A stretch of DNA of 64,000 bases from a virus (taxonomy: Duplodnaviria > Caudoviricetes), in the IMG/VR virus record IMGVR_UViG_3300025016_000004; one strand, given 5' to 3'. This document shows, one piece after another, positions 6,007 through 53,772 of this stretch. The notes beneath the pieces were generated by a model. That model was given only the letters and a program-made list of their open reading frames with translations, did no database searches and was not told where the DNA came from. Each line of letters opens with the position of its first letter. Position 1 is the stretch's first letter. A program made the position numbers and the translations under genes.

Positions 6007-7812
6007 TTATTTATCAGTGTCTGGTTTTTTATAATTCCTAACCATTTTAGTTATTAATGGATTTCTAACGATATCATTTTCATCAAATTCAAAGAACCCA
6101 ATTTCATCGATATTTCTATGTCTATTCATGGCATCATATAACCCCGTTTTAGTGGCATCATCATATCTATCAGATTGGTCCATATCTCCAGAAACAATAT
6201 ATTTTGAACCGTACCCGATTCTAGTTAAAAGACTTTTCATTTGAGATGGTGACATATTTTGAGCTTCCTCACCGATTAAGATTGAATTATCTAAGGTTTT
6301 ACCTCTAATAAAACCCAAAGGTTCAACCATTAATTCTTTAGAATCTTCTAATTTCCTTCTAGCATCTTCACCTATAATTTTATCAACAATGTCGATTGAT
6401 GCAGCTAAATATGGCTCTAGTTTTTCTTTTAGATTTCCAGGTAAGAATCCTAAGTTCTCTTCAGCTTCAACGGCTGGTTTAACTATTAAAATTTTATTGA
6501 ATGAATTATCTGGGTCTTGAAGTAGTTCTAAAGCTACTGCGATAGCTACGAAAGAATTATGTGTAACTATGAAGTTATCTGTAATATATAAAGAATCTTT
6601 ACTATCAATTGAGATACATTTAGCTTCTGATTGACCTATAGGTTCTATGTCAGTGATATAACGTTTTGGTATATATTTAGTTTTAGGTTTAACTAATTGT
6701 GCTTTTCTTTTTAATTTAAATGGATTAACCTCTGGTGGTAGTGATATAGTTAAGGTGTATGCTTTTTTACATAAAATTTTTTCACCATTATTATCAATAT
6801 ATGAACCTATTTTATCGTTTAACTTAAAAACACCCCCTAAACTATTAACGATAAAACAAACTCCATCAATTAAATCTTTAGATGTGTTAGTGAAAAATGT
6901 GGAAGTACCATTCTTATTTACATAACCATCGGTATCCATTAACCCTCTTAATACTTCTAATCTAACTTTTTTAGTATTAAAAAGGTATTTATCTGGTATT
7001 TTTTTATTTATTGTTGCAATATTTTTTAAGTTTAATTCATTTAAATTATTTAAAATTTCATTATTATTATTTTCACCAATAATTGAGTATTGATACTTAC
7101 CACTTTTTTTATTTATTGTGTGATAATCATTTAATCTTTCGGAAATAAGTTCTACGATTTCAGTATCTTGAGTTGTAAATGTAATTCTATTTTGCGTTAA
7201 ACCACCATCACCTAATAAACATCCTAGAACATAGGGGTCAATAAATAATTCCTTTTCTTCAAATTCAATTGATTTAACTAATGGGATTGTGTGATTTTTA
7301 TCACCTCTACTGGTATTTAAGGTTTCCATTATTTCACTCAAAGGTTTTACATGACCCTTTCTGGGTGAGTAAAATCTTTTACCACCTTTTTTTACTCTAT
7401 AATTTCTATCGTAATATGTGTCAGTTAACCATAAATGCTCATCACAACAATCTGTATAAGAACTATCATTAAAATATACCCTATAAATTTCTTTAATACC
7501 TTGAGGGTGAATTTGAATAACTTTTGTTGGTTTACCTTCAGGGGTTAAAACTTCATCACCAACTCGTATCTCACCCATAGTAGTCCAACCGTTAGGTGTA
7601 AGTATTTTAGAATACAATGGTTGTGCTTTCCCTACGCCAGCAGGCCCAGAACAAAGAACAATTTCTTTCTCTTTAATTAAATTTACAAAATCTTTTTGTT
7701 TAGTGTTTTTGCACTTTAATCTTACCTTGAGTGGTAAGATTTTATTTACAGACCTTTCCTTTGTGGTTGGTTGTGTTGGTGTACTTGTTGTACTTCTTTT
7801 ACCTTTTGCCAT
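6007..7812 (-). CDS. phoH: PhoH-family ATPase containing an intein
   Basis: Walker A GPAGVGK|S split by the intein; LGFLPGNLKEK, RGKTLD, EEAQN, GDMDQSD, IVRNPLI are PhoH motifs. Confidence 0.95.
   Translation of the reverse strand: MAKGKRSTTSTPTQPTTKERSVNKILPLKVRLKCKNTKQKDFVNLIKEKEIVLCSGPAGVGKAQPLYSKILTPNGWTTMGEIRVGDEVLTPEGKPTKVIQIHPQGIKEIYRVYFNDSSYTDCCDEHLWLTDTYYDRNYRVKKGGKRFYSPRKGHVKPLSEIMETLNTSRGDKNHTIPLVKSIEFEEKELFIDPYVLGCLLGDGGLTQNRITFTTQDTEIVELISERLNDYHTINKKSGKYQYSIIGENNNNEILNNLNELNLKNIATINKKIPDKYLFNTKKVRLEVLRGLMDTDGYVNKNGTSTFFTNTSKDLIDGVCFIVNSLGGVFKLNDKIGSYIDNNGEKILCKKAYTLTISLPPEVNPFKLKRKAQLVKPKTKYIPKRYITDIEPIGQSEAKCISIDSKDSLYITDNFIVTHNSFVAIAVALELLQDPDNSFNKILIVKPAVEAEENLGFLPGNLKEKLEPYLAASIDIVDKIIGEDARRKLEDSKELMVEPLGFIRGKTLDNSILIGEEAQNMSPSQMKSLLTRIGYGSKYIVSGDMDQSDRYDDATKTGLYDAMNRHRNIDEIGFFEFDENDIVRNPLITKMVRNYKKPDTDK
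6556..7626 (-). mobile_element. Class 3-type intein (357 aa) with LAGLIDADG endonuclease in PhoH P-loop
   Basis: Starts AQPL, block B DEHLW, block F AKCISID, ends VTHN|S; HEN motifs LGCLLGDGG and LRGLMDTDG. Confidence 0.9.
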
Positions 7813-7816
7813 AAAA

Positions 7817-7845
7817 AAATGTGAGCTTTTTAATAACTCACATTT
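7817..7845 (-). terminator. Hairpin plus U-tract directly upstream of phoH start codon
   Basis: AAATGTGAG-11nt-CTCACATTT followed by TTTT ATG on the minus strand. Confidence 0.4.
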
Positions 7846-7882
7846 AATATAATCACAAAAAATAAAAATTAAATAATAAAAG

Positions 7883-8851
7883 CTATATTTTAGCTTCTTT
7901 ATTTTCGTAGCGTTTTTCTAATTCAGCTAACTTGTACTTTTCGAATATGTTATCTCCATTTACTGTAACTTCAGCAATGAATTTAATTACATAGTGTCCG
8001 TTAAATTCAACGATTTTATCGAATTTTTTTACCTCATATTCATATTCTAAACCATCAATTGCACCTATGGTTTTATCAGTAATGAAACCAATCTTAGTAA
8101 TATCAAGTATATTTGAAGCTCTAGGGTTTTTTATAGCTTTTTTAATTTCACCTATTAAAAATTTGGTTTTCTTATCATATTCATCTTGGTAAGAAGATAC
8201 GTAAAATTCCAATAATTTTTCAGTTTCGTTGATATTTCTAACTAACAATTTTTTGGCATAATATTCAATTTCAAATTTCGGTCTAATATCCCTGTCCACA
8301 TATAGAGCCTTTTTTGATTGCATTGTGGACACCATATCATCAAAAGAAATCTCAGCCAACGTATTACCACTCCAAACATCCGCACCAACTAAATCAAACA
8401 TTATTTTACCATCAATAGGTGTATTATCACCTTTTGGGTTAAGTTTTAATTTATCGTTGCTGAAGGCTTCATAAGCTGATTTGGTGATGTCTTCATTCAT
8501 GACAACTAGCTCAACTGGATACGGGTCGAAGTTATCACGGGTTACTTTATCTAATTTATATTTCTCAATATTATAGGTTTCAACTATTGGTAATCCATCA
8601 GCATCATAACCAACTATTTTAGCTGTTTTATTTTTAGATTCACTTAAAACTTTATACAACCGCCATCTCAACTCTTTAACTTGTTGATTCGTTATCTGAT
8701 TTTTTAACCCATGTAATAATGTACCTTGGTCCTTTTCTATTATTAATCCAACACCTGACAAGTCGGAAGTTTTTGATTGAGATAATATCTTTTTATCAAA
8801 AACTGATAAACCAATCAAAAGCCCCATAATTTTATTTTTTATCCACGTCAT
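7883..8851 (-). CDS. Hypothetical protein whose first ~60 aa are supplied by the upstream HEG cassette
   Basis: ATG at 8851 (MTWIK...) preferred to GTG 8875; overlaps the HEG stop by 20 nt. Confidence 0.8.
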   Translation of the reverse strand: MTWIKNKIMGLLIGLSVFDKKILSQSKTSDLSGVGLIIEKDQGTLLHGLKNQITNQQVKELRWRLYKVLSESKNKTAKIVGYDADGLPIVETYNIEKYKLDKVTRDNFDPYPVELVVMNEDITKSAYEAFSNDKLKLNPKGDNTPIDGKIMFDLVGADVWSGNTLAEISFDDMVSTMQSKKALYVDRDIRPKFEIEYYAKKLLVRNINETEKLLEFYVSSYQDEYDKKTKFLIGEIKKAIKNPRASNILDITKIGFITDKTIGAIDGLEYEYEVKKFDKIVEFNGHYVIKFIAEVTVNGDNIFEKYKLAELEKRYENKEAKI

Positions 8852-9596
8852 ATTTGTATTGCCATTTAAATCCACCCGTTTTATTTCTTTTACCTAAACA
8901 AACCGCACTTATTTTACCTCTAATTATATTTAATTCTTTTTCAGCTTCCCCAGCGTGTGACCATAATTTAATTATTTCACCATCTAACCCAATTTGGTAG
9001 ACGTGTTTTCTTTTATTAGAAACTTCACCCTTTTTACTTTCACTTATTTTAGCCCTAACTACTTCACTAACTATTCTACCTGTTAATTTTTTTGATAGTT
9101 TTATTTTAGTTTCTTCTGATGTAACTCTCCCCATATTAGCTTTACTAATTTTTAATTTAGTTTCTTTGGACAATTTACTACCAGTTCTTAATTTTTTCAT
9201 TCTAATAGAAATCTCTTTTGAATATCTTTTAGCTAAATTCGACATTTTTTTCTTGGTTTCATCACTATGCTTATGCCCTATATTACCATGACCACCCTCA
9301 TTACAATTTAAACCAAACTTAAAACAATCATAATGTTTAATCCAATACTTTTCACGATTATTTAAATATTCTTTATTTACCCCACATAAACATTCTTCGA
9401 TTATTTCATAAGTATCAACAGGGTTCCATTTATGTTTTTCGCAACTAGCCCATAATTTTATTTGCGATTTAAAACCCCCCTTTTTATAATTATATTTTCT
9501 TTTTTTATTATTTATTGTTTGACCTATATAAATTTTACCGTTTGGGCTAGTTAATTTATAAATATAACCCTTTACATTTCTTAAATCTTTTTTCAT
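8832..9596 (-). mobile_element. Free-standing GIY-YIG homing endonuclease with NUMOD3/NUMOD1-type DNA-binding repeats
   Basis: GYIYKLTSPNGKIYIGQT, HSDETKKKMS repeats, C-terminal IIKLWSHAGEAEKELNI...KTGGFKW. Confidence 0.9.
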
Positions 9597-9642
9597 AAAC
9601 ACTATTTATTAATAAATATATAATTTTTAATAAAAGTGAAAA

Positions 9643-9828
9643 TTATTCTTTAACAGGCATCGTTATCTCACCTCGTAATAGAGCATCAGCTAACATGCCT
9701 TGTTGATATGTTTGTTCCATGGAACCAATATCACCCAAAGCGTCAGACTTTTGAGTTAGCATGCTCTTTTCAACCCTAGATAATGATAGGGATAGTAATG
9801 CGAATTTTCGTTTTAAGTAGTTAAGTAT
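9643..9828 (-). pseudogene. Stranded original 5' end of the 7883..8851 gene (61 codons, ATA at the presumed start)
   Basis: ILNYLKRKFALL...QQGMLADALLRGEITMPVKE* aligns ungapped with MTWIKNK...DQGTLL...QQVKE. Confidence 0.8.
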
Positions 9829-11412
9829 TTATGTTCTTATATCTGGGTAATTATTATTAAACCAATCAATACTTTCTTTCAACCCATCACGTAATGAAGT
9901 GAATTCAAAATCTGGTAAGTATTTTTTAATTTTACTATTATCACTTGGTTTTCTATATTGTCCATCAGGTTTACTTGTATCCCAAATAACTTCACCATCA
10001 AATTCCATCAATTCAACTATCATATTAACAACTTCTCTTATTGAATGTTCAGTAGATGTGGTTAAAATAATGGGTTCATCTTCATCATAGTTATATAAAA
10101 CCCATTCAGCTAATTTTGCAACGTCTTTAACATATATAAATTCTCTTAAAGGTATTCCACTACCCCAAATAGTAAACGGAGTGTTGTCACGCTTAGCTAT
10201 ATAACATTTATGTATCAATGAAGGTATAACATGGCCATCTTCGATGTTAAAATCATCATTTGGGCCATAAATATTAGTCGGCACTACACACTTATAATTT
10301 AACCCATGTTGCTCCCTATAAGCTCTTATTTGGACTTCAGCCATACGTTTAGCATAACCATAACCATAATTAGATTCATGTGGAGGACCTAAATGTATTT
10401 TATCTTCAGTTAGGGGGTATTCAATTTTAGCTGGGAATATACATGTAGATAAAAAACAAACTAAATTTTTTACACCATGTTTTCTAGCCGCCTCAATAAC
10501 GTTGGTGTTAATCATTAAATTTTCATAAAAATAATCGCCCATATGTTTCATATTACCACCTAACCCACCAACTTTACCAGCACAGTGTATTACATTATTT
10601 ACTGGGTTAGTTTTAAAATATTCATCAACTGAATTTTTATCCATTAAGTCACATTCTGCTCTAGTTAACTTAATAGAATTGTTGGTAAATTGCGACCCAA
10701 CTAATCCGTTTGCCCCAGTGATTAATTTACTATTTAAAAAAGTAGATAATTTTTGGTGATGTTGGTCAATAACGTGTTCCATATTATCTGGGTATCTTCG
10801 CATTTGAATTAATTCAGCCTTTACGCTTTGGTGCGTTTCATCATTATTATTTCCAGTTACATCAAATCTATCATGAGATATGACAATTAATGGTTCTTTT
10901 ATTGTTAAACCTAAGCGTTTCCCCAATATATCTATCCATGAGTCACAAGCAGCAACTTGTGACCATGAGCCAGTCACTTCAAACCATTTTTTTGGGATTA
11001 TTGGAAATAACACACCTTGTTTTTCCCAAAATTCAATCATTGTGTCAACTTTTGGTGAAATAACACAAAATTTATTTTTATATTTTAATATTTCTAAATC
11101 CCAATGCACACTATTCATAATAGCATCATCATTCCATAATAATAAAAATTCTCCTGATGATTTAGTACTTAAATCATTATAATAATTATGTAACCCACGA
11201 TAAAATTGCCTTTCATAAAAAAAGAGTTTAACATTTGGTTTATCCATTGCATACTCTTTTATTTCATTTATAGAGTGAATATCATCATTATCTAAAGCAA
11301 CTAAAACCTCAAAATTATTAACATCACTACAACTTTCAAAAAGAGAATTAATTGATTTTTTAAATAGTTTACCTCTATTTCTTGTTGGTATTAAAACACT
11401 TACTTTATTCAT
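9829..11412 (-). CDS. fcl: GT2 glycosyltransferase fused to GDP-L-fucose synthase
   Basis: N-half VSVLIPTRNR...WNDD; C-half ITGANGLVG, HCAGKVGGLGGN, STCIFP, YGYAKR, PTNIYGP. Confidence 0.9.
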   Translation of the reverse strand: MNKVSVLIPTRNRGKLFKKSINSLFESCSDVNNFEVLVALDNDDIHSINEIKEYAMDKPNVKLFFYERQFYRGLHNYYNDLSTKSSGEFLLLWNDDAIMNSVHWDLEILKYKNKFCVISPKVDTMIEFWEKQGVLFPIIPKKWFEVTGSWSQVAACDSWIDILGKRLGLTIKEPLIVISHDRFDVTGNNNDETHQSVKAELIQMRRYPDNMEHVIDQHHQKLSTFLNSKLITGANGLVGSQFTNNSIKLTRAECDLMDKNSVDEYFKTNPVNNVIHCAGKVGGLGGNMKHMGDYFYENLMINTNVIEAARKHGVKNLVCFLSTCIFPAKIEYPLTEDKIHLGPPHESNYGYGYAKRMAEVQIRAYREQHGLNYKCVVPTNIYGPNDDFNIEDGHVIPSLIHKCYIAKRDNTPFTIWGSGIPLREFIYVKDVAKLAEWVLYNYDEDEPIILTTSTEHSIREVVNMIVELMEFDGEVIWDTSKPDGQYRKPSDNSKIKKYLPDFEFTSLRDGLKESIDWFNNNYPDIRT

Positions 11413-16759: not shown

Positions 16760-17445
16760 AATAAATCTTTTTTAAGCTTATCTACGTTCATTGTTGTGTT
16801 TGTTGGTACATTATTGGGTGCCCAAGCCGTACCGACATCTTTAGTCTCTTTAGCCAACTCAAACATAGTTTTAGTTTCAGTCCCAACATTATAAACACCA
16901 TTTAAATCCTTATTAACCATTTTAATTATAAGGTCAGCTATGACATCAACATAATCAAAATTACCTGTTTGGTTTGTCCATGCGTTATCATATGGGAACG
17001 GCCTTGGTTTATGTGTACACCTACAAATCAAATAATCGTTTGACTCTAATTGTACTAAACCATCGGCTAATAATTTTGTATAGCCATACCAAGTATTACA
17101 ATGAACAGGTACGTTATTTTCAGACGCATTTTCTACTGAGTCAGCATATAAATAATCAGTTGATATATGAACCAACTTAATTCTAAAAGCATTACAATAT
17201 TTTATTAATCTATTAACAAAAACGTAATTAGTATTCCAATGAGATTCTCTATCTTCAGAATACGTGTCAGTATTTGCTATGCAATTAATAATAACATTTG
17301 GTTCGTAATCTAATTTAAATAATTCTCTTATATTATTAATATCAAACCCATCTTTTTTTCTGGAAAAATATTCCCACCCAGTTTGTTTAACAATTTCTGA
17401 ACCTAATAATCCATCCCCTAAAATTAATACTTTTAATTCACCCAT
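16756..17445 (-). CDS. RmlD-like NDP-4-keto-sugar reductase (short form)
   Basis: ILGDGLLG, NCIANTD, HISTDY, YGYTKL. Confidence 0.8.
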   Translation of the reverse strand: MGELKVLILGDGLLGSEIVKQTGWEYFSRKKDGFDINNIRELFKLDYEPNVIINCIANTDTYSEDRESHWNTNYVFVNRLIKYCNAFRIKLVHISTDYLYADSVENASENNVPVHCNTWYGYTKLLADGLVQLESNDYLICRCTHKPRPFPYDNAWTNQTGNFDYVDVIADLIIKMVNKDLNGVYNVGTETKTMFELAKETKDVGTAWAPNNVPTNTTMNVDKLKKDLL

Positions 17446-19883
17446 TTTTCTTTAAAAATTTTATCTATATAATCAAAGACTTCACTAGTATAATGCGGTG
17501 CTGCACCTAAAAAGAATACTTTATCCAATACAGTGTTGGCTTTTGGGTAAGAGTTTAAGTTACCTAAATGTTTATAACCATCATGCATAAGAATATTACC
17601 AGCAAAATAATTTCTTGTTTGGATTTTATTCTCTTCTAAAAACGCAACCAATTTATCTTTCAATGTTTTTGTTTCACAAATGAAAGGAGTTCCAAACCAA
17701 CAAGCGTCAGCTTTAGATAACATCTTAACTCCACTTAAACCTTCAACATAATTTAATAATATATTTTCAATATTATATTTACTAGCCTTTCTGTTAGAGT
17801 CAATTTCATCAAATTTTCTAAGTTGAACCAATCCAATTGAACCTTGAAGGTCCATAGGTTTAAGGTTATAACCCATATTTGCGAATACATATTTATGGTC
17901 AATAATACCATCATAAGAATCTAACCATTGGTCAAATCTATTTCCACATGTACCACAAGGTAATAAGTTGGCCGAACCAACGCAATAGCAATTGTGTGAA
18001 ACGATACCATTCGCATGATAACTTTCGTCTTTTTCAACTTCGAAATTAAAAACTTCTAAATCTTTAACATCATTTACTTCAATTGATGTGATTTCATGAA
18101 TCGCATATTTTTTATCCTCAGTGAAATATTCACTAACGTAGTGATTTTTCTTTTTACTCCAACCTTCATTTATTAAATCACTAAATATTTCAGCATTTTT
18201 ACCATAAGAAACTAAATTATATAAATCACGTTTCGCTTCTATTAATTTACCATTAACAATACTAGGGGTATGTTTATCTGGGGTTCTAACTAATAAATTT
18301 GGTGAAATATTAAATCTACTTAAAATTAATCTAAATTGGTTTGCTAAATTTATATTAGTGGTTGCTAATGACACAGATTGGAAATCATTTGAACCGTCAC
18401 CTCTCCAATAACCTTTAACCAATTCTATTAATAAATTTTTATCATAATGTATAAATTCATATGGTAACATTTTATTATATGATGAAGTTTTTAACGTTTT
18501 ATTAAAAAATTCGTAACCTTTTCTAGTCTTAAAAGTTATTGACACTCCATTTCCTTTAGGTTTTCTAGTAATCATAGACACCCCGAAATATTTTTTCATT
18601 AAATATTTTACATCATCAATATAATTAATCTCTTTCACGTTAAAAGAGAAATCAACCCTATAATATAAATATTTATTTTTAACATTTTGTTTATTTTTAC
18701 CATTAGACCCCTTATTCCCTTTACCTAAAGAACCTTCCGCTAACCAATAACCAATTAACCTAAATAAATCACCTTCAATGTTTAACTTAAAATTTTTAGT
18801 TTTAAGCAATGTTTTGTATGAATATTCCAAATTTTTAGGGGTAGCTTTATTGTCTGGTACTTTTTGAACTAGGAAATCACCTTTAATTATATCTTTAGGT
18901 TGTGTCCACTCAATTTTATTACCCCTCATTACGTATAATGGGTGATTTTCAGTGACTTTTATATCTTCATTTCTCATTGATTTAATTGTGAAAAGATTTC
19001 CATTATAATTTTTTTTAATTAAATCATAAACTTTCTCATAATTACCATTATGCGTATAAACTTTATCACCAATAACTATATTCTCAATATTTTTAACACC
19101 GTTAGTTGTATATATTGACGTTCCAGCTGGGTGACAATCCCTTCCCCACCAAGTAAAACTAGTGAATAACTTGCTTAATTGATGTATGTTGGTACAAACC
19201 ATTCCACCTTCACCCGTTGAAATATGGTGAGCTGGATAAAATGATGATGACCAAGCAACATAATAATCACTGATATCATTACCATCCCATTTACTACCGA
19301 TACTATCACAACTATCACCAATTAATTGCAAGCTATATTTATTACATAATCTAGTTAAGTAATCCATATCGGGTGGGTTACCTAAAACTGGTGAAACAAA
19401 TATAGCTTTTGTTCTATGAGTTATTTTATTTTCTATTTTGGTAATATCAAAATTCAACGTATCAAACTCAATGTCAACGAATACTGGTTTTAAACCATTC
19501 TGTACAACTGTTGATATGGTAGTAGGGAAGCCTACAGGGGACACAATAACTTCATCACCATCTTCCCATCCAAAATACTTTTTAAGACCCGCAATCAGCA
19601 CTAAATTAGCTGAACTACCAGAATTTACCATTTGGGCATACTTCGCACCAAATTTTTTGGCAAACATACGTTCAAATTTTCTAACATTTTCTCCAGCAAC
19701 TACCCATTTACCTGTAACTAAAGTATTGACCGCTTCTATTATTTCAGTTTCATCCCAATAAGGGCCTGAATATAAAACTTGGGATTCCCCAGCCACAAAG
19801 TTTTTATTATAAAGATACTTAGGGTTATTTTCCTTAACGTATTCTTTTAAATCATTTAATATTTTTTCTAATTTATTATCCAT
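17433..19883 (-). CDS. rfbH: CDP-4-keto-6-deoxyglucose 3-dehydrase (RfbH/DdhC, DegT family) containing an intein
   Basis: VNSGSSANL, PVLGNP, SFYPAHHISTGEGG (His in place of the PLP Lys), WGRD|CYC, YDHKY-like IIDHKYV, RNYFAGN. Confidence 0.9.
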   Translation of the reverse strand: MDNKLEKILNDLKEYVKENNPKYLYNKNFVAGESQVLYSGPYWDETEIIEAVNTLVTGKWVVAGENVRKFERMFAKKFGAKYAQMVNSGSSANLVLIAGLKKYFGWEDGDEVIVSPVGFPTTISTVVQNGLKPVFVDIEFDTLNFDITKIENKITHRTKAIFVSPVLGNPPDMDYLTRLCNKYSLQLIGDSCDSIGSKWDGNDISDYYVAWSSSFYPAHHISTGEGGMVCTNIHQLSKLFTSFTWWGRDCHPAGTSIYTTNGVKNIENIVIGDKVYTHNGNYEKVYDLIKKNYNGNLFTIKSMRNEDIKVTENHPLYVMRGNKIEWTQPKDIIKGDFLVQKVPDNKATPKNLEYSYKTLLKTKNFKLNIEGDLFRLIGYWLAEGSLGKGNKGSNGKNKQNVKNKYLYYRVDFSFNVKEINYIDDVKYLMKKYFGVSMITRKPKGNGVSITFKTRKGYEFFNKTLKTSSYNKMLPYEFIHYDKNLLIELVKGYWRGDGSNDFQSVSLATTNINLANQFRLILSRFNISPNLLVRTPDKHTPSIVNGKLIEAKRDLYNLVSYGKNAEIFSDLINEGWSKKKNHYVSEYFTEDKKYAIHEITSIEVNDVKDLEVFNFEVEKDESYHANGIVSHNCYCVGSANLLPCGTCGNRFDQWLDSYDGIIDHKYVFANMGYNLKPMDLQGSIGLVQLRKFDEIDSNRKASKYNIENILLNYVEGLSGVKMLSKADACWFGTPFICETKTLKDKLVAFLEENKIQTRNYFAGNILMHDGYKHLGNLNSYPKANTVLDKVFFLGAAPHYTSEVFDYIDKIFKEKWVN
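17991..19136 (-). mobile_element. Intein (382 aa) with LAGLIDADG endonuclease in RfbH
   Basis: Starts CHPAGT, VTENHP block B, ends VSHN|C; LIGYWLAEG and LVKGYWRGDG. Confidence 0.92.
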
Positions 19884-26807: not shown

Positions 26808-29188
26808 CTACTTTTCAGTGCCAAAAACAAGTTTTTTGTAATATTTAGCACGATTTTCTGTAACTTTATCCATTGAGTAGGTTTCAGCCACAGTATTATA
26901 TAAATTATCCCCAAGTATTTTTATCATCTCAGGGTTTTGTATCAATTTTTTAAGGTATTGATACCATTGTTTATGATTCCTATGAGAATCAACCAATAAA
27001 CCATTTTTAGTTAAATCAATTTCACCACCTTTTTGAAATGCATTTTGAATATCAATTGTATAAGGACCATAATTTTGAGCGATTAACGCCTTTTTATGGA
27101 AACCGCTTTCAATTACCTTTAATTGACTTTTAACTTTATTGAAGGTATGTTCAGTCAACGGTGCTAATGAAATATCAAATAAATTATAATTGGTCGCATA
27201 ATTGGTGATTGGTTTTGTCCAAACTCTTCTGTACGGCTCTTGCATAATGCTAGGGAATTCTTCAGTCACATATCTCAATAAATGCTCTTTATATTCTTTT
27301 GAAATTGTCGTATAATCATTGGTGAATATTTTTTCATATTCACACCAAACTGTTTCGTGTGGTAATATATCTCTTTGAGTTTGTTCACCTGTATCTTTGT
27401 TAATTGAATTAACCTTACCTCTAGTATCAAACCCACATAACACAAATTGTATTTTATCTAATAACCCGTCACCTTTTAATTTAGAAACTAATTGATTTAA
27501 TAATTTTAAATCTGCTAAATGACTATTCCCAATCCAAAATGCTTTACCATTTCGTCTAATATATATTATATGATTTTGAACTTCAACGCAATAAACATTT
27601 CCTTTATAATATTTTTTATATTGGTCATCTGTTTTAATTAAAGGGGTATTTTTATTATGTTTACTAACACTAGGGTGTTTTGTAAAATTAACAACTAATG
27701 AATCAAATTGGTTAGTGATTTTACGGCCTTTAATCATAGACGTTCTTTTACCTCGATTAGTAATGGTGGCTGAAATACCTAATTTTAATGCCATTTCTTG
27801 TAAATCATTGGCTAACGCTGATGAAGAGGTAAAAGCTCTAGTTCTACCATATTTGTTATTTTCAATATGACCATCACCATTAATAAACCATTCTAAAAAT
27901 ATCTTTAATTGCCTAGATGACAAATTTAATATTTCTTTAGGTATAAATTTTTCTGTAGCGGTACCAAAATCAGATAAATAATTCCATAATTGTTTATCAA
28001 AGACTCTCAATTGTTTTTTATCTTTAGTGTATTTTGGGTTAAATCCCATTTTAGTTAACAAATTAAACATATGCTCCAAATAATGATTATCTTTAGATTG
28101 AGCAATACCTACTTGATGTAAACCCTTACTTTTACTAGTCCAACCTTCAGCCATCCAAAAGCCGAAAAACTCTAACCAATCATTCATTTCTATCATAGTA
28201 TCAGTCCCATATTTTTCATATAAATCAACCCCATACTTATTTTTTTTATGTCCTTTTATAAAATTTTCATTATAAGCTTCTTCAAATTCGAACTTTAATT
28301 CAGTATAACTAGCTAAATTAGGTAATATAAAATATTCTACCTCATTACCAATCCAATTAGCATTTTTTCTAACATGAAAATTTTTACCATATATTTTTTC
28401 TGATTGTACTAACCCTAAATTCAATTTTTTATGAGTTAAATTCTTAGCTTCTGATGCGTACATATTATGGTTTGGTGTAACTTCATACTCAATTAACCCA
28501 TTTTTAGCACAATTTAATTCACCATCGAATGGTTCACATATATACCCACTTGGTTTATGATATTCCAAATAATTAGTTTCTGGGTTTAATGTTACTACTT
28601 TTTCAGTCTTATCTAACTCATCAAATCGTTTCCAACCACCATCAGTTAAAATTTCGGTATCTGGAGTCATACAACTCCCACCTAACCAACCAATTCTGAT
28701 TTTATCAGAAGGTTCTGGGTTTGAAGTGTATTGTTTTTCTGTTGGGTCAATAGCATTTGGTAAGACTACAACATTCTTGTTATGTTTTTTAATTTCATTT
28801 GCAAAAATTTCTGTTGTTGTTATAATATTCTCAGCAATTTTTAAATTATTAAGGATTTTTTTATCCAAATCATTATTTTTTATAATATGATATGCTGGGT
28901 GAGTCATATCTGGTAACCAATAATCATCTAAATCCATAACTGTAGGGATTCCTAATGATTTTAATTTTTCTAATAATCCTTCCATTTGGTCATAATTACC
29001 CAAAGCTCTATGATAATGAATTAGGTCGTATTGTTTTAACCAATCGTCATCATGTAATTTTGGCTCATATTCAATATCCACATGAAATTCATCTGGATAT
29101 AATTTTTCTAAATGTAAGTTTGGCTTGGTTGAACGAAAATAGCTCAACTTACCCCAGTACGGTCTGAAGGGACTACAAGTATCTTCAT
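26808..29188 (-). CDS. GT-B (GT4-like) glycosyltransferase with intein; first 14 codons out of frame with the body
   Basis: MKILVVPSDRTGVS* (29188-29144) then SYFRSTKP... in another frame; MDLDDYW, PNAID, GWLGGS|SH, KSQLKVIESG. Confidence 0.8.
27525..28673 (-). mobile_element. Intein (383 aa) with LAGLIDADG endonuclease in glycosyltransferase
   Basis: Starts CMTPDTEILT, VTPNH block B, ends WIGN|S; FFGFWMAEG and FLEWFINGDG. Confidence 0.9.
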
Positions 29189-29207
29189 TTTTTGACCTAC
29201 TGGGGTA
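29150..29207 (-). promoter_or_regulatory. RNA hairpin enclosing the glycosyltransferase start codon
   Basis: TACCCCAGTA-GGTC pairs with GACC-G-TACTGGGGTA (14 bp, 1 bulge); begins at the base after the HEG stop. Confidence 0.7.
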
Positions 29208-29975
29208 TCAATTTTGTTTGTTTTCATAATATTTTATTATTTCGTTTATTAGTTCTGGGTTTCTTTTATAATCACTTTCCCAAATAACTTTACTATTATA
29301 ACCATTTTTTTTCGCTAAGTAAAGCTTTTTATTATCACATAACCAAATTTCTTTGGCTGTTTTACTTTTTTTCTTATGCCAATACTCAGCATTATATTTT
29401 TTTGGGTTACAATGCCAATAATCACCATTATACTCTATTAATAAATTAAATTGTGGGACGTAAATATCAAAAATTTTACTTCCTATTCTATAATTAGGTT
29501 CACAATTAATACCTACTTCACTTAATTTATTTATTATTTCATCTTCAGCTTTAGACCTATTATAACTTTTTAATTCACCATTCATTATCCTTTCTTTCAT
29601 CAACTTACTCATTTTAACCCTAACACCTTCCATTTCACCACTTGCCCATAATTTTTTTTTCATATCACTAAACATTTTTCTATATTTTGGTTTAGACATG
29701 TGATTACTGGTGGAAACCCCTATTTTTGATTTACTTATCTTGTTTTTAGTTTCTTCAGTATGGGTTTTATTATAAAATGGGTTACCAACACCTTTTTGTT
29801 TTTTTAATGAACATTTTTTACATATACCTTTCTTTTTTAAATTTCTAGCTAAATAATATTCTTTTGAGGCTTCAACTAATATTTTATTTTTACATAAATG
29901 GCATTTGTAAAAAGAATACCATTTCTGGTTATCAACATTAAATTTGAAGTGTTTATATTTTTCATTTGATTCCAT
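29208..29975 (-). mobile_element. Free-standing Vsr-like/EDxHD-type homing endonuclease with NUMOD3-like repeats
   Basis: GNPFYNKTHTEETKNKIS, SKAEDEI, FDIYVP...IEYNGDYWH, KVIWESD. Confidence 0.8.
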
Positions 29976-30004
29976 AAATTATTTATTAATAAATATGGAA
30001 AAAT

Positions 30005-30076
30005 TTATAAAAAGTTTAAGTATGATACACCTGTTCTGTCACTTGGGACAACTAAGATTTTTATTTTTTTACTCAT
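30005..30076 (-). pseudogene. Stranded original 5' end of the glycosyltransferase
   Basis: MSKKIKILVVPSDRTGVSYLNFL*; KILVVPSDRTGVSY is identical to the downstream copy. Confidence 0.88.
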
Positions 30077-30095
30077 TCTAAAATTCACTTAAACA

Positions 30096-48402: not shown

Positions 48403-48428
48403 AAAAAGAGGTCAATTGACCTCTTTTT
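48403..48428. terminator. Bidirectional intrinsic terminator
   Basis: Perfect palindrome AAAAAGAGGTCAATTGACCTCTTTTT between convergent genes. Confidence 0.88.
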
Positions 48429-51400
48429 CTGTTTCTAACGCTACTTTATAGTCTTCTAATACCAACTCAACACCAGCTAAATCCAATTCTTTCTTAATCT
48501 TAAGAGCTTTTTTATCATCACCCTCTTTTCTAGCCTCAATCCAAAGGTGCGTTAACCAAAATTCGAAAGTTTTTTCTTTTCTAAGAGTTAGGGTTTGATA
48601 AAATTTTTGTCTTTGTGCCGCCCAAGGCTCATATTTTAAAATATCAGTAACACAACATAAATCAATTTCCCATTCTTTTGATTTGACATATATATTTGGT
48701 TTTCCATTTTCATCATCATGTACTGTAAATTCAGCTAAATTTTCTAAAGCTTTAGGTAATTTAGTGGTTTTCTTCATTTTTTGAATCTCATCATACTCTA
48801 ATCGTTTAATGATTTCACGGGTTTTAGATTTCTCAAACTTAATACCTTCAATCCTACGAATCCTTTCACGCTCATGATAATCTTCTTGAATTTGTTTCCA
48901 ATCCATGTTTAATTCTTCAAGATTATTTGGTATTTTATTGACTCTAATCCAAAATTGAATTTCCTTATCTTCCATTTCCATCAATTCAGCTAAAGTATTT
49001 TGGTCACCATCTTTGAACGCAGTACCACTATGTAACTCACACTCTTTTTTGGTAAATACTTTCCTTTCAGTTAACTCCATTTCTTTCGTTTTCTTATTTT
49101 TTACCATATCCATTAGAATACCTTCTCTGATTTCAGGTTTAAAACATACTAACAATGGATGAATCCTTTTATTGAAGGCATCTAAGTATTTAGGTACGTT
49201 ATATTCATCAGTTGTTAAATTAGGGTTATTTTCAATTTGCTCAGTTGGAATTAATTTACATTGCAGATTTATTGTTCTCTCACCAGTTTCTTTATTCGTT
49301 ACAACTTTAACATCACCATGACTTTTAACCGTACCTGTATTAACGTAATATACTGTATCACCTAAATTAGCTTTGATATTGTTGGCTATCAATAATTCCA
49401 TATGAGCTTTTTTAGCTTTTAAATTACCAGCTATTGTAGTTGTTTTCATATCAGTCATATAAGAAGATATTGAATCTTTAACATTAGCTTTTGAAGCTAT
49501 TTTAACTAATGGGATTCTAAAATTATAGATATCATCAACCGTTCTGTTGTATAAATCAATAAAACTTTCACCATCACCGTTTAAAAGATATTTAATCCCT
49601 TCATCTAGGAAATCTTCAATATAACCTGGCATCTTAGACGATTTAATAGTGTTACCAACCAACTTTGTTTTACCACCAATAAAGTTAGCATAATTTTTTC
49701 TAGAGAAATTAATTGTTGATGAACAAATATCATCAATATCTAATCCCATTCTACCAATCATAAATAATTCATTGAATTTGGCCACTACAGCGTCTAAACC
49801 TACAAGGATTTTACCTTTATCTTTTTCAGTAAATCTATGAGTACCTTTAGGTATGTAAGTATGTTTACTAACATCTTTTGGAATTGCGAAGTTGAATCCA
49901 TCGGTATTCTTTAAATTAACACCTCCAATACCACCTATGAAAGTCCCATCCTCAGTTGATATATCATAAACGTAATTTTCTTTATCTCTATTTAAAATTT
50001 CTTCATTTTTCCAAACCTCATTCGCTTGCATTATCGTTTTATCGGTAAACTCAGAATTATTACGATTACTATTTCTTAATTTAAATGATATGAAATTCTC
50101 TTTATCTTTACGAAGTTTTAATTTGTATTGAACTCCTAAACAATTCAAAAGATACCCAATACCCGACATCGCAACTTGTGATTTCATACCAATATCAGAA
50201 ACCGTTTCCATATCATTACCATACCCATCAGAAGCGCAAACACCATCCATGAAAGCTTTTTTATTTTCTAAAGTAGTATTTAAAACAAATGTTGGTACTT
50301 TCTTTTCTCTATAACTAGTATAAAAATCCTCACAGAACCTTTGACTAAAATCAGTTTTATACACCACAAGGTTATAAACACCACTACTTTTACGATGGTC
50401 TTTAATCCTTGGTTTAACATCCCAAAAAGCCCAATTTTCTTCAATAATGGATTTTAATTTCTCAAGGTTTTCCAAATTATTACTAGATATTTTCCACTCA
50501 CCTCTCACTCCTTTATTTATATGAGTTTCACCAGTTTTACGAGATTTATAATATTGTTTCCTTGACCCATATATCGCAGAACCATCCCCTAAGAAATATC
50601 CTAGTAACCAATAAAAATCAGTTCTAGTCTCAGGGAAAGTATCTGTATTATGCTGTGGTAATTGGTGAACGTCTATTAAATCACCCCTTTTAAGTGAAGA
50701 TGGTTTAACTTGAATTCCATTTTGGAATAAAGAGTGGTCTTCAGTAACGCAAACTAATCTATCTTTAGTGGAAACTCTATGAATTTGTTTTTGAGTTTCA
50801 TGTTTATAAACATAATTAATTTCTTTCCAACCATTAACAGTTAAAACTTCATAAGGTTTAGTCTCATAATCTCTAATTTCTTCTTCATCAATAGAATTCG
50901 AATTAGGGTTATATAAATCACAAATAGGTAAAATATCAATTGCCCCATTATCTTTCCATTTTATATAAATTGGCGTGTTAAAAGTAACAGAATCACCAAC
51001 CAGAGGTCTAAAATCATAATCCATAAAGAATTTAACCATCAATCTCAAATATTGTCTTCCTCTACATGTTGTTTCTTCAGCACAATTAATATCACCCCAG
51101 TTAAAGATATTTGGTGCCCCTAGTGAACCAAAGAATGAGTTACCAAGAATTTTAATTGGTAATTGTTTCTTATCGTACATACTAGCTAAACTACTTTCTT
51201 TTTCTATTTGAGATTCTAGTAATTCAAAATCTTCTTTAGGTAATTTATCACCATTAGCTTTCTTAAAGTCTTTTAATTTAGATAATTCACCTTTATGATG
51301 GTTCATTAGATTTTTAAATTTATCCCTTGTTGAAGCGATATAAATTAACATACCTTTCATTACTCCCGTAATATCAGTGTCAGGGAAAACATCATGCGTA

Positions 51401-52956
51401 ATCTCAATATTAGGATATAGAGCAGCAAAATCCAGTTTTGCGACGTCTTCAGCATATCCAACCTCTAGTAATCTAGATAATCCACCAGTAAATGTTTTTC
51501 TAGGTTTTAAATCAGGGATAGCCAATCTATTTTCATAAGACCATGCTAACATAATCAATTTCCAAATACCAGCTGTTCCCATTGTTGTTGAACGCATATA
51601 AGATGTAGGAATAATTTTAGATAATAAGAATGAAGCTTGATTATAAACACCATCCACTTGTTCAGTTTCCCAAAGGTCATCAAGTAAGTATTGTCTAACT
51701 ATATCAGAACCCTTAGCCTCCTTATAACCTTCTTTTAATGGGTTTTCTTCATTTATCTTATAATAAGTGCCATCAGTATTATTATAGGCGTATACGCTAT
51801 CCTTATCGTTCCAAGTTTCATATATTTTATTACCTTCAACATAAACTCGATTCTCTTTATTTAAACCTGAAAATTTGGTAATATATTTTAACCCCGCTTT
51901 TTTAATATTCGAGTTGATTGCTTTTGCTCTACGAACTGCATGATAAACATCAACAATATTATAACCCCACATTGTGGTTTGTTTATAATATTCACGCTCA
52001 CCACCTAATTTAAGTGATTTATCAACCCTTCTAATTTTACTATTACCATGTCTATCTAAAGTCTTAGCGATTAATTCAATATCTAACCCTAAAATATCAC
52101 ATCTAGTAAAAATAAAATGCCAGTCAAAGTTTTCTGAGTTATAACCAGCTATAACATCAGGTTTTAGTGTATTAATTACATCAAAAAATTTAAGAATTGA
52201 ATAAGCTTCATAATCCCTTAATTCTTGTTTGGTACCTTCTTGTGGAACTTCTATAATTTCTTCGTAACCTCTATTATCTCTAATACCAACTTGAAATATT
52301 TTATCATCCTTATACCTAATAGGTTCATTGGTACTATCAAATTCATATAATTTGGTTAAATCTTCACCAGTACCCATCCTCTCTTTAATATCTTCAATAT
52401 CTTCCTGAGATAATAATCGACCTTTTGGGTTTAATCCTGTTGTTTCTAAGTCAAATTGAAGTCTATGGACATCGTTATAATCATCCATCCCTTTAAACAA
52501 TCGTCTACCAGTGGCAATTAAATATTGTTCAACTGGGTTTATTGTTATAAAATAACTTTTGTGTGAATCACCATAAACATCAATACCACCATCTTTAAAA
52601 AAATTTAATAATTTTGTATAAGGGCCTTTAACTTTGGCAATGTATTTAAAACCATTCTTCATTCGCCTAGCTTCTTCTTGGTCAGGCATGGAAGTTTTTA
52701 GTTTTTTAATAGAAACACCATATTTTTTTGCAGAGGCGGCAATTAAATTTCTTTTACCACCAAACATTATTTTAGTAACTTCCTCTTTAAACCATAAAAA
52801 TGAAATTAATGAGTCTTTTGATATAAATTTACCTCTTTCAGGGTCATTAATTATCAATGAAACATCTGGGCTACCATATGGAATTTCTACACCTACAATA
52901 TATTTCTTTTGGTTTCTACCCTCTAAGAACCTAGCAATAATTTCTTCGTCAACCAT
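48412..52956 (-). CDS. polB: Family B DNA polymerase with intein
   Basis: FDLETTG, YNSENFD, LDFAALYP, KILGNSFFG, VGD|TDG, KNYA. Confidence 0.95.
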   Translation of the reverse strand: MVDEEIIARFLEGRNQKKYIVGVEIPYGSPDVSLIINDPERGKFISKDSLISFLWFKEEVTKIMFGGKRNLIAASAKKYGVSIKKLKTSMPDQEEARRMKNGFKYIAKVKGPYTKLLNFFKDGGIDVYGDSHKSYFITINPVEQYLIATGRRLFKGMDDYNDVHRLQFDLETTGLNPKGRLLSQEDIEDIKERMGTGEDLTKLYEFDSTNEPIRYKDDKIFQVGIRDNRGYEEIIEVPQEGTKQELRDYEAYSILKFFDVINTLKPDVIAGYNSENFDWHFIFTRCDILGLDIELIAKTLDRHGNSKIRRVDKSLKLGGEREYYKQTTMWGYNIVDVYHAVRRAKAINSNIKKAGLKYITKFSGLNKENRVYVEGNKIYETWNDKDSVYAYNNTDGTYYKINEENPLKEGYKEAKGSDIVRQYLLDDLWETEQVDGVYNQASFLLSKIIPTSYMRSTTMGTAGIWKLIMLAWSYENRLAIPDLKPRKTFTGGLSRLLEVGYAEDVAKLDFAALYPNIEITHDVFPDTDITGVMKGMLIYIASTRDKFKNLMNHHKGELSKLKDFKKANGDKLPKEDFELLESQIEKESSLASMYDKKQLPIKILGNSFFGSLGAPNIFNWGDINCAEETTCRGRQYLRLMVKFFMDYDFRPLVGDSVTFNTPIYIKWKDNGAIDILPICDLYNPNSNSIDEEEIRDYETKPYEVLTVNGWKEINYVYKHETQKQIHRVSTKDRLVCVTEDHSLFQNGIQVKPSSLKRGDLIDVHQLPQHNTDTFPETRTDFYWLLGYFLGDGSAIYGSRKQYYKSRKTGETHINKGVRGEWKISSNNLENLEKLKSIIEENWAFWDVKPRIKDHRKSSGVYNLVVYKTDFSQRFCEDFYTSYREKKVPTFVLNTTLENKKAFMDGVCASDGYGNDMETVSDIGMKSQVAMSGIGYLLNCLGVQYKLKLRKDKENFISFKLRNSNRNNSEFTDKTIMQANEVWKNEEILNRDKENYVYDISTEDGTFIGGIGGVNLKNTDGFNFAIPKDVSKHTYIPKGTHRFTEKDKGKILVGLDAVVAKFNELFMIGRMGLDIDDICSSTINFSRKNYANFIGGKTKLVGNTIKSSKMPGYIEDFLDEGIKYLLNGDGESFIDLYNRTVDDIYNFRIPLVKIASKANVKDSISSYMTDMKTTTIAGNLKAKKAHMELLIANNIKANLGDTVYYVNTGTVKSHGDVKVVTNKETGERTINLQCKLIPTEQIENNPNLTTDEYNVPKYLDAFNKRIHPLLVCFKPEIREGILMDMVKNKKTKEMELTERKVFTKKECELHSGTAFKDGDQNTLAELMEMEDKEIQFWIRVNKIPNNLEELNMDWKQIQEDYHERERIRRIEGIKFEKSKTREIIKRLEYDEIQKMKKTTKLPKALENLAEFTVHDDENGKPNIYVKSKEWEIDLCCVTDILKYEPWAAQRQKFYQTLTLRKEKTFEFWLTHLWIEARKEGDDKKALKIKKELDLAGVELVLEDYKVALETEKEVN
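49906..50991 (-). mobile_element. Intein (362 aa) with LAGLIDADG endonuclease in polymerase motif C
   Basis: Starts SVTFNTP, VTEDHSL, VYDISTE, ends NLKN|T; LLGYFLGDG and FMDGVCASDG. Confidence 0.92.
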
Positions 52957-53517: not shown

Positions 53518-53772
53518 TTATGTATTTAAAGATTGAATTAATACAATTGCTTGGTCAATTGTTTGGAAACTCCTATTTGGAACCAATACATGTTTATCAA
53601 ATATGATGATAGGGATTACAGGTTCACCAACGAAATCAAATAATTTAATGACATGTTCTCTATTGGAATCATCATCAATATTTATATTGGTGAACTCAAG
53701 GTTTAATTTGCTTAACTTTTCTTGTAAATCCTTACAATAAGGGCAATTATTACTTGTATATACTTTTATCAT
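53518..53772 (-). CDS. Glutaredoxin-like protein
   Basis: VYTSNNCPYC. Confidence 0.9.
   Translation of the reverse strand: MIKVYTSNNCPYCKDLQEKLSKLNLEFTNINIDDDSNREHVIKLFDFVGEPVIPIIIFDKHVLVPNRSFQTIDQAIVLIQSLNT

Follow-up and report, generated by a model that had tools for sequence, protein, structure and literature searches.

The closest described relatives of the arrangement analyzed here are gene hybrids linked to mobile endonuclease open reading frames (mORFs) of fungal mitochondria, namely those of atp6 in Allomyces macrogynus (work of 1994, in the account that Beaudet et al. 2013, PMC3630166, give of it) and of atp6, atp9, cox2 and nad3 in Glomus (Beaudet et al. 2013, PMC3630166). In phages, homing endonuclease genes (HEGs) are found at recombination boundaries between genomes, and the small open reading frames (ORFs) of such HEG-islands can be fragments of neighboring essential genes that may act as recombination substrates, according to the sections of Barth, Dunham and Seed (2023, PMC10055350) that treat them. 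The free-standing Seg and Mob endonucleases of T-even phages are known for intronless homing, marker exclusion and co-conversion, and split genes are represented by mobE in nrdA of Aeh1 and by mobA in T4 genes 39/60 (Edgell, Gibb and Belfort 2010, PMC2988022; bioRxiv 10.1101/2022.08.31.505936). Here we describe a locus at positions 7,883-9,828 of a 64,000-nucleotide (nt) stretch of IMGVR_UViG_3300025016_000004 (Duplodnaviria; Caudoviricetes), the whole of which we call the window. At this locus a GIY-YIG endonuclease gene stands between two versions of the 5' end of one conserved phage gene, referred to below as the host gene, a 322-amino-acid (aa) ORF on the minus strand (8851..7883, start ATG at 8851). 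We consider it very probable that a mobile cassette, made up of a spacer, a GIY-YIG/NUMOD3 endonuclease gene and an overlapping 60-codon 5' segment of a diverged allelic class (class B, in distinction from class A), was copied into this gene between codons 60 and 61 and thereby made it a chimera.

The insertion is seen directly when the window is aligned by BLASTN with two endonuclease-free relatives, L096 and L003, with which both flanks of the cassette are collinear. Window segments 10590->9647 and 8680->7797 are contiguous in L096, as are 9827->9647 and 8680->7624 in L003, with an overlap of 8 nt in both cases, and the first of these segments runs along L096 2239-3182 at 87% identity. The insertion point falls exactly between codons 60 and 61 of the host gene, the boundaries of the cassette being ambiguous by the 8-bp direct repeat that ends both the displaced original N-terminus (the stub) and its replacement (N') (Table 1). 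A preliminary description of this DNA had already pointed to an unannotated 61-codon remnant (9828-9643) which ends in VKE, as do the first 60 residues of the downstream gene, had counted 15 identities over 60 ungapped positions, had noted microhomology at the junction and had taken the remnant's start to have decayed to ATA. All of this was borne out. The translations agree; the count of 15/60 (25%, right-aligned and ungapped) was reproduced, and none of 20,000 shuffles matched this identity or the BLOSUM62 score of 36, while 1 of 2,000 shuffles matched the local Smith-Waterman score. Both junction strings are present, GTTAAAGAAT at the stub and GTTAAAGAGT at the chimera, with GTTAAAGA as the 8-nt BLASTN overlap, and L096 has ATG where the window has ATA in an otherwise near-identical context (ACATAAATG versus ACATAAATA).

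Compared separately, stub and body share their closest relatives and the replacement does not, as the preliminary description had foreseen for an imported N-terminus. The stub is 93% and 95% identical in aa to the N-termini of P0002 and P0004, respectively (92-93% in nt), and the window body is 90% and 74% identical to the bodies of the same two proteins (89% in nt to P0002/L003). N' reaches just 29-31% identity with the N-termini of P0002 and P0004 and is matched best by P0047 (65%) and P0045 (57%), the bodies of which are 46-47% identical to the window body (46% for P0047). A profile built from N-termini of the family recovers the stub with E = 1.3e-28 and the replacement with E = 1.3e-16, which settles in the affirmative whether the remnant resembles such N-termini at all, a point on which the preliminary description had staked its reading, and N' fills the full length of the N-terminus in the family alignment of the downstream gene. 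Judged by these sequence comparisons, the host gene is chimeric, its N-terminus being foreign and its body native, as had been proposed, and its original start has been left behind as the stub, now probably untranslated.

The trees are discordant in the same manner. Class B was defined by an N-terminal motif before any tree was built, and has 22 members on the trees. On the N-terminus tree it forms a single clade with support 99* (the star marking a well-supported branch), which contains the window replacement, and the window stub is placed with P0004 and P0002. On the body tree, P0002 is the sister of the window protein (99*) and class B is scattered, requiring 11 changes, at least 7 of which are forced by starred branches; the approximately unbiased (AU) test rejects monophyly of class B on this tree with p = 1.9e-85, at a cost of 1083 log-likelihood units.

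The layout of stub, spacer, endonuclease and N' also recurs, at the same codon, in L002 (the P0045 contig), L029 (an IMG/VR contig), L179 (the P0054 contig) and L181 (the P0109 contig). The bodies of these lineages are only 43-57% identical to that of the window, and each stub resembles relatives of its own lineage; that of L029 is 92% identical to P0119, the sister of the L029 body at 99* (this junction was read at the protein level only), and that of L179 resembles P0065 and P0073, which form the sister clade of the L179 body. In every full cassette the codon that precedes LRWR is no more than a few nt away from the junctions, in a stretch that ranks among the most conserved DNA of the gene (1.35 bits/nt versus a median of 1.03), and repeats of 8-11 nt are found at the junctions across loci. 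The stop of the endonuclease gene overlaps the start of N' by 20 nt in the window, L002 and L001 (P0047), by about 14 nt in L029, L179 and L181 and by about 11 nt in L072, and the endonuclease gene and N' travel together. Since the catalytic domains of the window, L002 and L181 are 79-81% identical and the corresponding host bodies only 43-47%, the endonuclease is far more conserved than the genes that carry it, which argues that the cassette moved horizontally.

Together with these loci, others complete a natural series that runs from the empty site through the full cassette (five lineages, including the window), a swap of about 8 codons and a decayed endonuclease to the replacement allele alone. 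In L072 the endonuclease is present, the stub comprises only about 8 codons and apparently only about 8 codons have been swapped. In L001 the last ~34 endonuclease residues remain and the stub is gone; its alignment with the endonuclease-free L178 is 96-100% identical in nt from the LRWR codon onwards, with no similarity just upstream. Class B without any endonuclease is found in L028, L046, L065, L180 and L182. Of 11 class-B loci, 6 have an endonuclease or a relic of one upstream, versus 1 of 58 class-A loci (Fisher p = 2.5e-5).

The endonuclease gene of the window is free-standing and intact and has the features of GIY-YIG homing endonucleases of the Seg/I-TevI-like kind, that is, a catalytic domain, a separate C-terminal DNA-binding module and presence or absence at one site between close relatives (window versus L003 and L096; L001 versus L178; L029 versus P0119). 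An N-terminal GIY-YIG domain (PF01541, residues 11-91, E = 7e-5, 23.5 bits for a cutoff of 22.6) is followed by NUMOD3 repeats (PF07460, E = 1.1e-12) and by an I-HmuI-like NUMOD-like tail, the match of which to PF22083 stays below the cutoff. Its PHROG matches are phrog_314 (homing endonuclease, E = 1e-29) and phrog_5123, with the annotation 'homing endonuclease with GIY-YIG motif', and the alignment displays the pattern YIY...YIG...R...E...N, in which Y13, Y23, G25, R81, E82 and N97 are invariant. No Rfam intron or other RNA family reaches threshold in 7700-10000 and Pfam detects no Hint/intein domain in the host gene; the pieces are not complementary and no splicing element was found, which sets the locus apart from split genes, introns and inteins.

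The endonuclease is 69% identical to that of L002 overall. The catalytic domains of the cassette endonucleases fall into two subfamilies, one made up of L002, L181 and the window and the other of L029, L072 and L179, with identities of 71-81% within a subfamily and ~30% between them, whereas all six loci have NUMOD3/C-terminal DNA-binding halves that are 47-69% identical to one another, without any such split. A shared DNA-binding half combined with two catalytic subfamilies suggests that the nuclease domain has been exchanged and one target specificity kept. The next-nearest endonuclease relatives (46-49% identical) occur in L098, L099 and L100, contigs without the host gene, and a metagenome scan with the endonuclease alignment gave 80 loci, none of which has the host gene. 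A 17-nt motif with a palindromic core, ATATTTATTAATAAATA, lies in the spacer, and an exact copy lies just upstream of an unrelated second endonuclease gene of the window; 7 matches were counted versus 1.2 expected. Variants of the motif precede the endonuclease in L002 and L098 (in the latter the same ATATTTAT..ATAAA motif stands directly upstream of it) and, in related loci, also lie between other genes, with the position downstream of the host gene as an example. To go by position alone, the motif probably serves this phage group as a signal of the promoter type.

The model that we propose for these observations is as follows. The endonuclease would cut class-A alleles that lack it, close to the conserved coding stretch for GEITxEVK|LRWRxYK, and repair of the double-strand break would copy the cassette, with the genome of a co-infecting carrier as template. 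Pairing would be limited to short conserved patches, GEITxEVK on the left, by way of the donor's stub, and LRWRxYK on the right; given that donor and recipient are very divergent and only such patches can pair, the resulting junctions would be razor-sharp. The class-B sequence would take the place of that half of the putative site which codes for GEIT, and the two halves would be parted by the insertion, so that the carrier would be protected. After fixation, the endonuclease and the stub would decay or vanish and the class-B N-terminus would stay.

Several points weigh against this model. Five class-B lineages have no endonuclease, and class B can be native to them or have been spread by ordinary recombination. 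We infer cleavage of class-A alleles, and its site, from sequence and not from enzymology. A near-identical donor was not found, and with the best match of N' at just 65% it is the phylogeny, in place of a donor-recipient pair, from which the transfer is deduced. The genome is AT-rich and the V-K/E codons in which the junction repeats lie are conserved, so that the repeats are possibly shared through conservation and not through insertion. The presumed function of the chimera rests on its intact frame and on its fixation in many assemblies. Finally, the right side carries no consistent signature of immunity: just 3' of the junction, 5 synonymous differences fall within 21 nt between the window and L003, and 1 in the L001/L178 pair. 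As the pattern seen with L003 is absent from that pair, we make no claim of immunity substitutions there.

Some of these points could be accommodated by ordinary mosaicism, in which general homologous or illegitimate recombination at the short LRWR patch swapped the N-terminal segment and the endonuclease was a passenger that never cut the host gene. The occurrence of class-B alleles without any endonuclease would follow naturally, and so would the position of the junction, which lies in one of the few conserved patches of DNA that any recombination would favor. However, a simple exchange would have removed the old N-terminus and not left a stub with an endonuclease gene in between, and this three-part layout arose in at least five lineages. 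Nor would a passenger be expected to keep the high identity between carriers described above while their host genes diverge, or to have one DNA-binding half common to two nuclease subfamilies, as is expected if a single target has been kept. We therefore regard mosaicism of this kind as unlikely.

That the stub still functions, either as a small protein or as a left homology arm under selection for further homing, appears very improbable to us. It is true that the window stub is open over 61 codons, that its codon differences from L003 are mostly synonymous (9 versus 4 non-synonymous), that four of the five stubs have kept a start codon (ATG in L002, L029, L179 and L181) and that fragments of this sort are proposed as recombination substrates in the relevant passages of Barth et al. 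(PMC10055350). Yet the start of the window stub has mutated to ATA, L072 retains only its few stub codons and L001 none. A stub that is no more diverged than the body (92-93% versus 89% nt identity) and that differs mostly at synonymous sites implies that the insertion is recent or that the stub has been kept, and a recent insertion accounts for its intactness equally well. That the 5' end of the gene was locally duplicated in tandem and then diverged in situ, or that the locus is an assembly chimera, is scarcely credible: the two 60-aa segments are homologous and collinear, but the nesting of the replacement among class-B N-termini of other phages and the 93-95% identity of the stub to close relatives exclude divergence in situ, and the architecture recurs in unrelated samples as well as in 24/24 contigs inspected. 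The exact host protein is indexed in 102 blocks of the assembly collection, of which those with the longest contigs were read; the same neighborhood was found in every one of the 24 contigs, and the arrangement is not an assembly artefact.

Beyond the single insertion, we lean, if only slightly, towards a broader view, in which such cassettes make up a family of self-repairing elements that home into coding sequence at one codon. Their diverged N-terminal module would be the determinant of immunity, would have reached seven or more distant large-phage lineages, driven there by the cassette, and would outlive the endonuclease, the nuclease domain being exchanged and the DNA-binding half kept. 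In the second subfamily (L029, L072, L179), the left end of the cassette has a conserved GGTGAAATTAYT that resembles GEIT codons, and a conserved TGGTGAAATTAYTTAA..AAGTTATAAC is found at L179:1690-1720, L072:3185-3215 and L029:210-245, the first part of which resembles the GEIT codons of the host gene. This GEIT-like left end may be the fossil stub of an earlier host.

Table 1. Features of the cassette locus and of the second cassette of the window. Minus-strand order at the first locus: glycosyltransferase/epimerase fusion -> stub -> spacer -> endonuclease -> host gene -> phoH.
Feature	Position	Strand	Remarks
Upstream gene, glycosyltransferase-2 / NAD-epimerase fusion	9829..11412	-	Pfam PF00535 + PF01370
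Stub, original N-terminus of host gene	9646..9828	-	61 sense codons ending VKE; first codon ATA
Direct repeat copy 1, GTTAAAGA	9647..9654	-	end of stub
Stop TAA after stub	9645-9643	-	part of insertion
Inserted cassette	8681..9646	-	966 bp; stop + spacer + endonuclease gene + replacement 5' segment
AT-rich spacer	9597..9642	-	46 nt; holds 17-nt motif ATATTTATTAATAAATA (palindromic core) at 9603-9619
GIY-YIG homing endonuclease gene, free-standing, intact	8832..9596	-	254 aa; last 20 nt overlap start of host gene
Replacement N-terminus (N')	8672..8851	-	60 codons; class-B allele; present 5' end of host gene
Direct repeat copy 2, GTTAAAGA	8673..8680	-	end of replacement N-terminus
Native body of host gene	7883..8671	-	262 codons + stop; starts at conserved LRWRLYKVL
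phoH with LAGLIDADG intein	7812..6007	-	directly downstream of host gene
Second cassette, stub ORF	30088..30005	-	contains MSKKIKILVVPSDRTGVSY
Second cassette, 17-nt motif ATATTTATTAATAAATA	29980-29996	-	identical copy
Second cassette, endonuclease ORF	29975..29208	-	255 aa

The host protein has about 170 metagenomic homologues of ~320 aa each, on contigs of up to 360 kb, and its gene always lies directly 5' of phoH in these large myovirus-like genomes. The fusion gene that forms the left flank is syntenic in endonuclease-free relatives, and the window also encodes tail sheath, tail-fibre-like and family-B polymerase genes. Searches of the phages of GenBank (INPHARED) gave no match to the host protein by tblastn or to the region by blastn, and metagenomes are the only known source of this phage group. 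The host protein matches no Pfam or PHROG family, has no neighbor in the ESM Atlas, and its family profile finds no match in a PDB sequence search. Its AlphaFold model is of moderate quality (predicted local distance difference test score, pLDDT, 71.5); Foldseek of the model against PDB returned nothing at E <= 0.001, and a BFVD search returned an uncharacterized Myoviridae protein as its sole hit. VIA-align placed residues ~180-300 weakly on tail-tube, neck and baseplate proteins (Z 5-6.5), and a function suggested by this putative tail-tube-family fold was dropped as such scores are too weak to name one.

Selfish elements are unusually abundant in this genome. At 29144-30088 (minus strand) the window has a second cassette, alike in design but with an unrelated endonuclease, and the second MKILVVPSDRTGVS segment of this cassette has a stop at its end, just before a 779-aa intein-bearing gene (29147..26808). 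The phoH intein, a LAGLIDADG element of ~1.07 kb, follows the Walker-A sequence GPAGVGK and appears as a gap at 6549-7624 in BLASTN versus L003; it apparently starts with Ala (AQPLY...) and ends in ...THN|S. It is missing in the endonuclease-free L003 and L096, and a very similar intein is found at the same site in L001, the contig with the class-B N-terminus closest to the window replacement. Intein or LAGLIDADG signatures are present in four further genes, which encode a DegT-type aminotransferase (17433-19883), the 779-aa protein (26808-29147), a family-B DNA polymerase (48412-52956) and an SNF2 helicase (53769-56678). At L179:3457-4369, phoH is called as two overlapping ORFs of 116 aa and 196 aa, a split that may reflect a frameshift or a further interruption.

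If the broader view is true, homing endonucleases would be engines of protein-domain allele replacement in phages, beyond their use as markers of mosaic boundaries. An endonuclease could invade a conserved coding gene without an intron or an intein and yet leave that gene unbroken, because it would supply a substitute start. The series of loci opens to test both the life cycle of such elements and the degree of N-terminal divergence that a protein tolerates. For annotation, it follows that a short unannotated ORF which precedes a phage endonuclease gene can be the former start of another gene, and phage phylogenies built on single genes will be misled by chimeras of this kind.

It remains to place the cassette among the systems with which we began. 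From the HEG-islands it differs in its definition, since there the fragments are described in passing, in ICP1-like and other cultured phages, and the sections of PMC10055350 concerned with them describe no defined cassette with a precise insertion codon, an overlapping replacement start or a replacement allele of polyphyletic distribution on the tree of its host gene. With Seg and Mob it has in common an endonuclease of the free-standing GIY-YIG type whose DNA-binding half is modular, the possibility of swap or decay after insertion and, we infer, a spread in which repair of double-strand breaks co-converts the flanking coding sequence. Seg genes, however, are intergenic and their homing replaces the flanks without leaving a duplicate, and mobE and mobA yield two needed polypeptides, whereas the downstream gene of our locus is complete in itself and has no need of the stub, the start of which is gone; duplicated replacement termini are not mentioned in the T4 review (PMC2988022). 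The likeness to the mORFs (PMC3630166) goes further. In both systems an endonuclease ORF (GIY-YIG or LAGLIDADG in mORFs) is linked to a foreign gene terminus, the gene becomes a hybrid, and next to it stands the displaced native terminus, which resembles sister taxa far more than the inserted copy does. The mORF replaces the C-terminus and has its endonuclease downstream, whereas the cassette replaces the N-terminus and has its endonuclease upstream, and since the end of the endonuclease gene runs past the new start codon, start signals have to come from the cassette. Moreover, its host is a phage and not an organelle, and its replacement has diverged strongly in protein (25% identical to the stub), while the mORF copies differ mainly in DNA. 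Taken together, the phage cassette is mORF-like in its working, mirrored to the 5' end of the gene, and stands outside that organellar group.

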